Below, one piece after another: positions 18,586-22,380 of a DNA stretch of 64,000 nt. The notes beneath the pieces were generated by a model that was given only the letters and a program-made list of their open reading frames with translations, had not been told where the DNA came from and did no database searches. The stretch is taken from assembly GCF_003334405.1 (NCBI RefSeq), contig NZ_QOWM01000002.1; one strand, given 5' to 3'. The position numbers were made by a program, and so were the translations under genes. This stretch comes from Escherichia coli. Lineage in GTDB: Bacteria > Pseudomonadota > Gammaproteobacteria > Enterobacterales > Enterobacteriaceae. The first letter of the stretch is position 1; the number at the start of each line of letters is the position of its first letter.

Positions 18586-19626
18586 TCATTTATCGGAAGA
18601 CGCCTGCCACAGATTCAGCTCGCCATCGGCGATATGCTGATCAATCTGCGCCAGCTCCTTGGTGCTAAATGTCAGATTATTCAGCGCCTGCACGTTCTCC
18701 TCTAGTTGCTCCGCGCGGCTGGCACCAATCAATACCGACGTCACGCGATCATCTTTCAGCAACCAGCTTAACGCCATTTGCGCCATTGATTGTCCACGCT
18801 GCTGTGCCATTTCATTCAATAAGCGCAGGCTGTTGAGGTTGGCTTCGGTAAGCATTTTCGGTGTCAGACCACGAACTTTATTCCCTTCACGATGCATCCG
18901 TGAATCTTGCGGAATGCCGTTGAGATATTTTCCGGTCAGCAATCCCTGAGCCAGAGGAGTAAAGGCAATACAGCCCACGCCGTTATTTTGCAGGGTATCC
19001 AGCAGGCCGCTTTTATCCACCCAGCGGTTCAGTAAATTGTACGAAGGTTGATGAATTAACAGCGGAATTTTCCACTCGCGCAGCAACTCGACCATTTTTT
19101 GCGTCCGCTCTGGCGAGTAAGAGGAGATCCCGACATACAGCGCCTTACCGCTTTGTACCGCATGAGCCAGCGCAGAGGCGGTTTCTTCCATCGGCGTATT
19201 TTCATCGACGCGATGAGAGTAAAAGATATCGACATACTCAAGCCCCATACGCTTCAGGCTTTGGTCGAGGCTGGCGAGCAGGTATTTACGTGAACCGCCA
19301 GAGCCGTAAGGGCCGGGCCACATATCGTAGCCAGCCTTGGTAGAGATAATCAGTTCATCGCGATAAGCGGCAAAATCCTCCCGCAGCAGGCGACCAAAGT
19401 TCTCTTCTGCGCTTCCTGGAGGCGGCCCGTAATTGTTGGCTAAATCAAAGTGCGTAATGCCCAAATCAAACGCTTTACGCAGGATCGCACGCTGTGATTC
19501 CAGCGCGTTAACGTGACCGAAATTGTGCCATAAACCGAGCGATAACGCGGGCAGGCGTAAACCACTTTTTCCGCAATAGCGGTATTGCATCTGCCCGTAA
19601 CGTTCGGGATTCGCTAACCAGACCAT
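18586..19626 (-). CDS. gpr: L-glyceraldehyde-3-phosphate reductase (aldo-keto reductase YghZ)
   Basis: 346-aa aldo-keto reductase family ORF. K-12 synteny. Confidence 0.9.
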   Translation of the reverse strand: MVWLANPERYGQMQYRYCGKSGLRLPALSLGLWHNFGHVNALESQRAILRKAFDLGITHFDLANNYGPPPGSAEENFGRLLREDFAAYRDELIISTKAGYDMWPGPYGSGGSRKYLLASLDQSLKRMGLEYVDIFYSHRVDENTPMEETASALAHAVQSGKALYVGISSYSPERTQKMVELLREWKIPLLIHQPSYNLLNRWVDKSGLLDTLQNNGVGCIAFTPLAQGLLTGKYLNGIPQDSRMHREGNKVRGLTPKMLTEANLNSLRLLNEMAQQRGQSMAQMALSWLLKDDRVTSVLIGASRAEQLEENVQALNNLTFSTKELAQIDQHIADGELNLWQASSDK

Positions 19627-19782
19627 GACCTCTCCTTTCCACCGTTCAATTTCGAAACAATGTTTCTAGTTTAGCGATTCGCCAGCGCGTATCCCGTAGT
19701 CTGGCTCACAGAGTGACGAAAAACTGGGCAAAAACACGTGCTTATGCTTTGCTTAAAAAAACACCAACTGAGGAGTGCAACG

Positions 19783-20667
19783 ATGCCGCGTTTAACCGCC
19801 AAAGATTTCCCACAAGAGTTGCTGGATTACTATGACTATTACGCTCACGGGAAAATCTCGAAACGTGAGTTCCTCAACCTTGCGGCGAAGTGCGGTAGGC
19901 GGGATGACGGCATTAGCGTTGTTTGATTTGCTCAAGCCAAATTATGCGCTGGCGACTCAGGTAGAGTTTACCGACCCGGAAATTGTTGCTGAGTACATCA
20001 CGTATCCTTCGCCAAATGGTCACGGCGAGGTGCGGGGTTATCTGGTGAAGCCCGCAAAGATGAGCGGCAAAACGCCAGCCGTAGTGGTGGTGCATGAGAA
20101 TCGTGGACTGAATCCGTATATCGAAGATGTGGCACGGCGAGTGGCGAAGGCGGGGTATATCGCCCTGGCACCTGACGGCTTAAGTTCCGTTGGAGGTTAT
20201 CCGGGAAATGATGATAAAGGTCGTGAGCTGCAACAGCAGGTTGATCCAACAAACTGATGAATGATTTCTTTGCCGCAATTGAGTTTATGCAACGCTATCC
20301 GCAAGCGACAGGCAAAGTGGGTATTACCGGATTTTGCTATGGCGGTGGCGTATCGAACGCGGCGGCTGTCGCGTATCCGGAACTGGCCTGCGCGGTGCCG
20401 TTTTATGGTCGTCAGGCACCCACTGCCGATGTGGCGAAGATTGAAGCGCCTTTACTACTCCACTTCGCGGAACTGGACACCCGAATCAACGAGGGCTGGC
20501 CTGCTTACGAGGCGGCGTTGAAAGCCAATAATAAGGTTTATGAGGCGTATATCTATCCGGGGGTTAATCACGGATTCCATAATGATTCCACGCCCCGTTA
20601 TGACAAATCTGCCGCCGATCTTGCCTGGCAAAGGACACTGAAATGGTTCGATAAATATCTCTCCTGA
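19783..20667 (+). pseudogene. yghX: Dienelactone-hydrolase-family gene yghX, disrupted by frameshifts
   Basis: Three consecutive ORF pieces in different frames (19738-19926, 19832-20257, 20257-20667) together read as one alpha/beta-hydrolase protein, with a frame change near 19860-19925 and another at about 20255. Confidence 0.8.
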
Positions 20668-20785
20668 TAGGTTTATCTCTTACGGGATTACGTCTTAAAC
20701 AAGCATGAAAAAATAGCGTGCGCAAAAGTCGTTCTTTGCCTAAAATATCGCTATATATGACAATATATAGCGAATGAGGTGAACG

Positions 20786-21073
20786 ATGAATAACCATTTT
20801 GGTAAAGGCTTAATGGCGGGATTAAAAGCAACGCATGCCGACAGTGCGGTTAATGTGACAAAATTCTGTGCCGATTATAAACGCGGTTTTGTATTAGGCT
20901 ACTCACACCGGATGTACGAAAAGACCGGAGATCGCCAGCTTAGCGCCTGGGAAGCGGGTATTCTGACGCGCCGCTATGGACTGGATAAAGAGATGGTAAT
21001 GGATTTCTTTCGTGAGAATAATTCCTGTTCTACGTTGCGCTTTTTTATGGCCGGTTATCGCCTCGAAAATTGA
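20786..21073 (+). CDS. yghW: Small protein YghW (DUF2623)
   Basis: 95-aa ORF immediately upstream of the hyb operon, as in K-12. Confidence 0.8.
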
Positions 21074-21261
21074 TCAAACATACGTATTATCTTGCTTTAA
21101 TTAATTACACTAATGCTTCTTCCCTTCGTTTTAGCGCCCCGCCGCAGTATCATGATATCGATAACCATAATAAATGTGTGGTAAATGGCGCATCGATCGC
21201 ATTATTGATTTTGCGATTGAGGCAAAATATATGCCAGGTCTTCGCAACGGAATAACTATAA

Positions 21262-22380
21262 ATGACTGGAGATAACACCCTCATCCATTCTCACGGCATT
21301 AACCGTCGTGATTTCATGAAGCTTTGTGCAGCATTAGCCGCCACCATGGGGTTAAGTAGCAAAGCCGCTGCAGAGATGGCCGAATCGGTTACTAACCCGC
21401 AGCGTCCGCCAGTTATCTGGATTGGCGCGCAGGAGTGCACCGGTTGTACGGAATCTCTGCTTCGTGCAACGCATCCAACGGTAGAAAACCTCGTACTGGA
21501 GACTATCTCTCTGGAGTATCACGAAGTGCTTTCCGCCGCCTTCGGTCATCAGGTCGAAGAGAACAAACATAACGCTCTCGAGAAGTACAAAGGGCAGTAT
21601 GTGTTAGTGGTGGATGGTTCCATCCCATTAAAAGATAACGGTATTTATTGCATGGTTGCCGGTGAGCCGATTGTGGATCACATCCGCAAAGCGGCGGAAG
21701 GCGCAGCAGCCATTATCGCTATCGGTTCCTGCTCTGCGTGGGGCGGTGTTGCCGCAGCTGGAGTTAACCCAACTGGCGCAGTCAGCCTGCAAGAAGTTCT
21801 GCCAGGCAAAACCGTTATCAATATTCCGGGCTGCCCGCCGAACCCGCACAACTTCCTCGCGACCGTTGCGCACATCATCACTTACGGCAAACCGCCGAAA
21901 CTGGATGACAAAAACCGTCCGACCTTCGCCTATGGCCGTCTGATTCACGAACACTGCGAACGTCGCCCGCACTTCGATGCTGGTCGTTTTGCCAAAGAGT
22001 TCGGTGATGAAGGCCACCGCGAAGGCTGGTGCCTGTACCACCTCGGCTGTAAAGGGCCAGAAACTTACGGCAACTGCTCAACGCTGCAATTCTGCGATGT
22101 TGGCGGTGTGTGGCCGGTGGCGATTGGTCACCCGTGCTATGGCTGTAACGAAGAAGGTATCGGCTTCCATAAAGGCATCCATCAGCTTGCCAACGTCGAA
22201 AATCAAACTCCGCGTTCACAGAAACCGGATGTTAACGCTAAAGAGGGCGGCAACGTCTCTGCAGGCGCTATTGGTTTGCTCGGCGGTGTGGTTGGGTTGG
22301 TTGCCGGTGTCAGCGTGATGGCGGTGCGTGAACTGGGTCGTCAGCAAAAGAAAGATAACGCTGACTCACGGGGAGAATAA
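21262..22380 (+). CDS. hybO: Hydrogenase 2 small subunit
   Basis: Tat signal ([23 protein letters not shown]) and Cys clusters typical of a [NiFe]-hydrogenase small subunit; 372 aa. Confidence 0.96.

Follow-up and report, generated by a model that had tools for sequence, protein, structure and literature searches.

Is the broken yghX gene found in this Escherichia coli DNA an old scar of the whole species or a recent break in one of its lineages, and does anything functional survive the break? The complete former coding region lies at 19783..20667 on the + strand of the window, the 64,000-nt stretch of DNA that was analysed; as read from the open reading frames and their translations, it runs from the native ATG to the native TGA over 885 nt, against 888 nt in the intact gene. 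Its neighbours are gpr/yghZ (18586-19626, - strand) on one side and yghW (20786-21073, + strand) on the other, with hybO and the hyb operon downstream, and both the window ORFs and the annotated neighbours at identical loci place yghX between gpr (yghZ) and yghW. There is no second copy of the locus elsewhere within the 64,000-nt window. An Rfam scan of 19000-21500 matched no RNA family, and a promoter/terminator consensus scan of 19600-20800 returned nothing above shuffled expectation on the + strand 5' of yghX.

Two deletions in one gene

The protein encoded by this region is spread over three segments of the + strand. Segment 1 (19783..19926) holds native codons 1-36 (MPRL...LAAK, the native end) followed by 11 out-of-frame codons and a TGA; segment 2 (19891..20257) holds native codons 38-156 in a second frame and ends in ...QQQVDPTN, with its TGA at 20255-20257; segment 3 (20251..20667) contains native codons 157-295 and the stop, again in the original frame, and an in-frame internal ATG at 20257 opens a 136-aa ORF within it (MNDFF...KYLS, then the stop). 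The original prediction had the protein readable across three frames; only two are used, in the order 1, 2, 1, the starts at 19783 and 20257 both being 1 mod 3 and the middle piece 2 mod 3. Taken singly, segments 1 and 3 match the NCBIfam YghX model below its cut-off of 460 bits (E=5e-15, 55 bits, and E=5e-78, 262 bits, respectively, the latter over profile positions 158-292). With these profile matches and the exact repair described below, the three segments are one protein, not a product of chance.

The lesions were placed by aligning the window to strain LHM10-1, whose yghX is annotated intact; the match is 1004 nt long and its sole differences from the window query (19700-20700) are three gap positions. 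Lesion 1 is a 2-bp deletion at junction 19890/19891 (19890..19892, + strand), located by alignment to intact alleles and by reconstruction, and it falls inside the interval of about 19860-19925 in which a first shift had been predicted. The intact allele reads GCG AAG TAT GCG and the window GCG AAG T GCG, the missing bases being TA or AT; the deletion takes out the invariant Tyr37 and changes the frame. Lesion 2, located by alignment, is a 1-bp deletion at junction 20250/20251 (+ strand), where one C of CCAACCAAACTG is missing. Here the intact allele reads CCA ACC AAA CTG and the window CCA ACA AAC TGA; the codons hit are ACC AAA CTG (T157 K158 L159), and reading goes back to the original frame. 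This second lesion sits 5 nt ahead of the segment 2 stop and just before the ATG at 20257, in agreement with the expectation of a second shift at about 20255, between a VDPTN stop and MNDFF.

Putting TA and C back into the window yields the LHM10-1 gene base for base, and with it a 295-aa YghX, which bears out the reading of a gene inactivated by two frameshifts. Together the two lesions remove three bases, by which segment 3 regains the original frame; since nine stop codons interrupt the native start frame from one lesion to the other, this net loss gives no rescue of the protein. Between yghX and yghW, 13 nt ahead of the yghW start, 20748-20773 forms a perfect inverted repeat with 11-bp arms (TCGCTATATAT-tgtc-ATATATAGCGA), a possible operator or terminator-like element; the four SNPs that separate the window from LHM10-1 downstream of yghX (20751, 20759, 20760 and 20762) all fall inside it.

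The yghX gene sequence is identical in the window, K-12 W3110 and K-12 MG1655. The window and K-12 thus share their lesions, as had been suspected, and the window carries the K-12-type pseudogene allele. Over window positions 19423-21223 there is a single difference from MG1655, at 19735 (C in the window, T in K-12, where W3110 and MG1655 share it), 48 nt ahead of the ATG of yghX/yqhI; the window thus does not come from K-12 itself. Many natural isolates are also a 100% match to the window at the yghX locus. Compared with the MG1655 entries yghX (b4658) and yqhI (b4755), the locus and both deletions are alike and the annotation alone differs: the MG1655 pseudogene begins at an out-of-frame ATG equivalent to window 19832, so that just one frameshift is recorded there, and window 19783-19926 is listed as a separate protein-coding gene, yqhI. 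In other genomes, PGAP treats the identical 885 nt (19783-20667) as one gene, 'YghX family hydrolase, frameshifted'. The yghX pseudogene is thus already known, and because it is annotated in K-12 and by PGAP its scientific weight is small.

The repaired protein and its N-terminal stump

Repaired YghX scores 587 bits against NCBIfam NF041440 'YghX family hydrolase' (cut-off 460) and matches Pfam DLH PF01738 over model positions 1-217 of 217 (E=3.3e-48), confirming that this is a gene of the dienelactone hydrolase family; from the family match, intact YghX is predicted to be a dienelactone-hydrolase-fold enzyme. An uninterrupted frame for the whole fold is absent in the window copy, where translation from the native start halts after 47 codons, and this copy is a pseudogene of the YghX/DLH family, not a functional member. 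The nucleophile elbow (G184-F-C186-Y-G188), D233 and H264 are invariant in YghX orthologues; Cys186/Asp233/His264 align with Cys123/Asp171/His202 of ClcD, and by this alignment the catalytic codons all lie in segment 3 on the + strand (Cys186 at 20335-20337, Asp233 at 20476-20478 and His264 at 20569-20571). ClcD of Pseudomonas (PDB 1DIN, 4U2C), the founding member of PF01738, has the alpha/beta-hydrolase fold and the Cys-Asp-His triad in common with YghX, but the two are distant (E ~1e-15), and ClcD is cytoplasmic with no N-terminal extension whereas YghX has a 58-residue signal-like N-terminus. The YghX of O157:H7 (WP_001302757.1) is encoded at the same locus by 888 uninterrupted nt and differs from the repaired window protein at 2/295 residues; PDB 4ZV9, deposited as 'uncharacterized protein', is this O157:H7 orthologue from about residue 60 to residue 295.

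Residues 1-58 of the repaired protein (window 19783 to ~19953) comprise a polar n-region, the motif S-K-R-E-F-L, a mildly hydrophobic h-region at 37-48 (Kyte-Doolittle maximum ~1.85), Lys52 and A-L-A at 56-58, directly after which the 4ZV9 construct begins. KREFL is invariant in Enterobacteriaceae YghX, and RRxF[LIVMA] stands at the matching place in 34/59 distant full-length homologues. The overall layout is like that of Tat signal peptides, except that enterobacterial YghX has KR in place of RR; the Pfam TAT_signal model did not match repaired YghX. Judging from these features, a Tat-type signal peptide probably directs intact YghX to the periplasm. The first 31 residues, which end in KREFL, are near-invariant across enterobacterial genera, a conservation beyond that of the enzyme domain, and the n-region contains a LYDxYxH motif; a dedicated chaperone or some other role could account for such a constrained n-region.

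In K-12 the start of this N-terminus goes by another name. The 47-aa translation of segment 1 is identical to the YqhI sequence of PMC6001520, and the MG1655 yqhI coordinates map to 19783-19926: yqhI is made up of codons 1-36 of yghX and 11 frameshifted ones, and it is a separate ORF only in genomes with lesion 1. Pfam PF23678 'YqhI-like' covers residues 1-36 of intact YghX and appears in the precomputed domain lists of all orthologues returned; this family is in fact the N-terminus of full-length YghX hydrolases. YqhI synthesis was detected in K-12 by chromosomal epitope tagging, and YqhI was listed as a newly identified small protein (PMC6001520). Under Mg2+ starvation, ribosome profiling and RNA-seq show more footprints and more RNA for YqhI, and yqhI deletion results in a lower growth yield in low Mg2+; plasmid-encoded YqhI failed to complement the deletion phenotype, and its overexpression was without effect (PMC11429745). 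The word 'pseudogene' is absent from PMC6001520 and PMC11429745, one of which is the first YqhI report. The most plausible view of YqhI is that it is what remains of YghX's probable Tat signal peptide and is still expressed, and the reported yqhI phenotypes and regulation would most likely belong to the yghX promoter/locus, not to a dedicated small-protein gene.

Distribution, order and age of the lesions

When 19700-20700 was compared by megablast with 5,426 complete E. coli genomes, every genome had a match to the locus; matches 1001 nt long were 99.8% or more identical to the window, and those of 1004 nt ranged from 99.7% down to 94.8%. In identity bands that tolerate at most 1 SNP for lesion 1 and 0 SNPs for lesion 2, and in a collection that is biased and rich in laboratory K-12 derivatives, so that percentages describe the collection and not nature, lesion 1 is present in 1,505/5,402 genomes (~28%; at least 99% over 101 nt) and lesion 2 in 1,197/5,384 (~22%; exact 81-nt match). 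The lesion-1 site is undeleted in 2,549 genomes at 99% or more over 103 nt, to which are added diverged alleles with an undeleted 103-nt span, and the lesion-2 site is undeleted in 3,235 genomes (exact 82-nt match). Both lesions are absent in the remaining ~72% of the 5,426 complete genomes. With the 1001-nt query, matching places outnumbered genomes by ~670, and one further place was on a plasmid, vs ~5 extra for the 81- and 101-nt lesion queries; a minority of genomes therefore have some part of the locus in more than one copy.

The distribution of the lesions is nested. About 1,197 of the ~1,505 lesion-1 genomes have lesion 2 too, and the allele with lesion 1 alone occurs in ~300 genomes (of 60 evenly spaced ranks, the first 4 were 100% matches, in agreement with 1,505 minus 1,197); Ecol_448 and KSEC38, which give 1002-nt matches, are examples in which lesion 1 is present and lesion 2 absent. 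A synthetic query for the allele with lesion 2 alone found no exact match in the genome collection, the best matches being fully intact alleles at 99.8%. Because of this nested pattern, the 2-bp deletion is most likely the earlier event and the 1-bp deletion a later one, in a sub-lineage including K-12 and the window; the nestedness comes from one database, and recombination or reversion could in principle also yield alleles with lesion 1 alone. Haplotype identity (at least 99.8%) suggests that the lesions had a single origin.

Several lines of evidence bear on the age of the lesions and on selection outside the lineage that carries them. The lesion-bearing alleles sampled are all within 0.2% of the window, whereas intact alleles diverge by up to ~5% (to ~94.8% identity), and the LHM10-1 allele, intact and with no further difference over the 888-bp ORF, still circulates. 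One intact allele is shared by BL21(DE3) (NC_012971.2), REL606 (NC_012967.1), E. coli C, BLR and C41/C43(DE3), and the intact yghX of strain DL21 (471-1358) is identical in DNA to the BL21(DE3)/REL606/C/C41/C43 allele. The gene is also annotated intact in O157:H7 and in the urinary isolate 1162T7 (94.8% identical); CFT073 is undeleted across both lesion sites and one ST131 strain at the lesion-1 site. Six intact alleles, compared in pairs by the Nei-Gojobori method, give dN/dS values of 0.03-0.13 (dS up to 0.28), which are consistent with purifying selection on yghX outside the lesion lineage. Full-length YghX orthologues of 294-299 aa (85-92% identity) are present in Citrobacter koseri, Pseudescherichia, Enterobacter, Kosakonia, Leclercia and Silvania, and the residues at the lesion sites, Tyr37 and Pro156-Thr-Lys-Leu-Met160, are invariant in them; the orthologues returned are all 292-299 aa long, and the nine that were aligned read through both lesion sites without a shift. 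The decay of yghX seen here is recent, stepwise and confined to one lineage, and selection was relaxed there after the first lesion.

Other breaks of yghX also occur. IS1 insertions interrupt the gene in three genomes of the collection (H1, H2 and H251), strain GF130 has an independent break by a 2-bp GC insertion at gene position ~129, an O127:H6 strain has an IS insertion in yghX, and NCTC9041 keeps only the 3' 130 nt of the yghX-region query. Independent breaks in unrelated lineages show that yghX is occasionally dispensable despite general purifying selection.

Proposed history, its rivals and what follows from it

We propose that the gene decayed in two steps. A 2-bp deletion at codon 37, within the signal peptide, would have shifted the frame in a K-12-like ancestor; this lesion falls between the KR motif and the h-region, and translation from the native start would stop after 47 residues. 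In the sub-lineage of K-12 and the window, a 1-bp deletion at codon 157 would then have struck a gene already dead. The yghX promoter and start codon remain in use, the 47-aa stump being produced in K-12, and the locus would provide no functional hydrolase. The internal 141-aa and 136-aa ORFs could conceivably be translated. We regard it as very nearly certain that yghX is a lineage-specific, recently formed pseudogene resulting from two stepwise deletions and common to K-12.

The original prediction had leaned towards a different history, in which yghX would be relaxed throughout E. coli and the K-12 lesions would be old shared scars. The lesions are indeed common to K-12 and other lineages have breaks of their own (IS1, the +2 bp of GF130, the O127:H6 IS and the strain with only the 3' 130 bp), but an ancient, species-wide decay is very improbable given that only ~28% and ~22% of genomes carry the lesions and ~72% of complete genomes lack both, that lesion alleles stay at 99.8% or more identity to the window while intact ones range down to ~94.8%, and that an intact allele with no other ORF difference is extant; the low dN/dS of intact alleles (0.03-0.13) and the full-length conservation of orthologues across Enterobacteriaceae likewise speak against relaxed selection in the species at large. 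It had further been proposed that sequencing error at homopolymers could undo the finding, in which case yghX would really be intact in this strain. Nothing specific favours such an artefact beyond small indels being a common error class of long-read assemblies, and its probability is close to nil: neither lesion lies in a homopolymer run (lesion 1 is TA within GTATG and lesion 2 is C within CC), and more than 1,000 complete assemblies, each independent, share the same alleles; both deletions occur in ~1,200 independent complete genomes, among them the MG1655 reference, where the gene is annotated as a pseudogene. On this non-homopolymer context and the presence of the same lesions in ~1,200-1,500 independent complete genomes, sequencing error was rejected.

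Could the frameshifted gene still be functional, through programmed ribosomal frameshifting or as an enzyme split between the 141-aa and 136-aa fragments? The net loss of three bases returns the C-terminal part to the original frame, and the last segment, with an ATG of its own, contains the complete catalytic triad. Against this, the shift is absent from full-length orthologues and from ~72% of E. coli genomes, so that there is no conserved recoding site; nine start-frame stops separate the lesions; the middle fragment is without the KR motif and the n-region and would therefore not be exportable; the alpha/beta-hydrolase core would be split in two; K-12 curators and PGAP both call a pseudogene; and the locus is routinely disrupted as a neutral integration site. 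Taken together, this makes a surviving function for the hydrolase highly unlikely. A last possibility, compatible with the recent stepwise loss of the hydrolase itself, is that a gene was born: the YqhI stump would have been co-opted in the K-12-like lineage as a selected small protein that responds to Mg2+ starvation. YqhI is detectably made (PMC6001520), and the induction under Mg2+ starvation and the growth-yield effect of the deletion fit such a role, but the same study found neither plasmid complementation nor an overexpression effect (PMC11429745), the ORF exists only where lesion 1 does (~28% of genomes), its last 11 residues are frameshift read-through, and the allele is too young for any selection test. 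We therefore consider co-option unlikely, with a small chance of being right.

The preferred history, a recent loss in the K-12-like lineage, has a practical side. The yghX locus is widely used as a 'neutral pseudogene' chromosomal integration site, and it has been treated as a pseudogene integration site in BL21(DE3) as well (PMC12617950). That status holds for K-12, not for BL21(DE3), REL606 or strain C, in which yghX is intact; insertions at this site in BL21(DE3) thus destroy a live gene. For the species, there is no sign of an E. coli-wide loss of yghX; its decay is recent, stepwise and datable, and if YqhI has in fact been co-opted, the signal peptide of a decaying gene would have given rise to a small protein, a birth that comes with a date.
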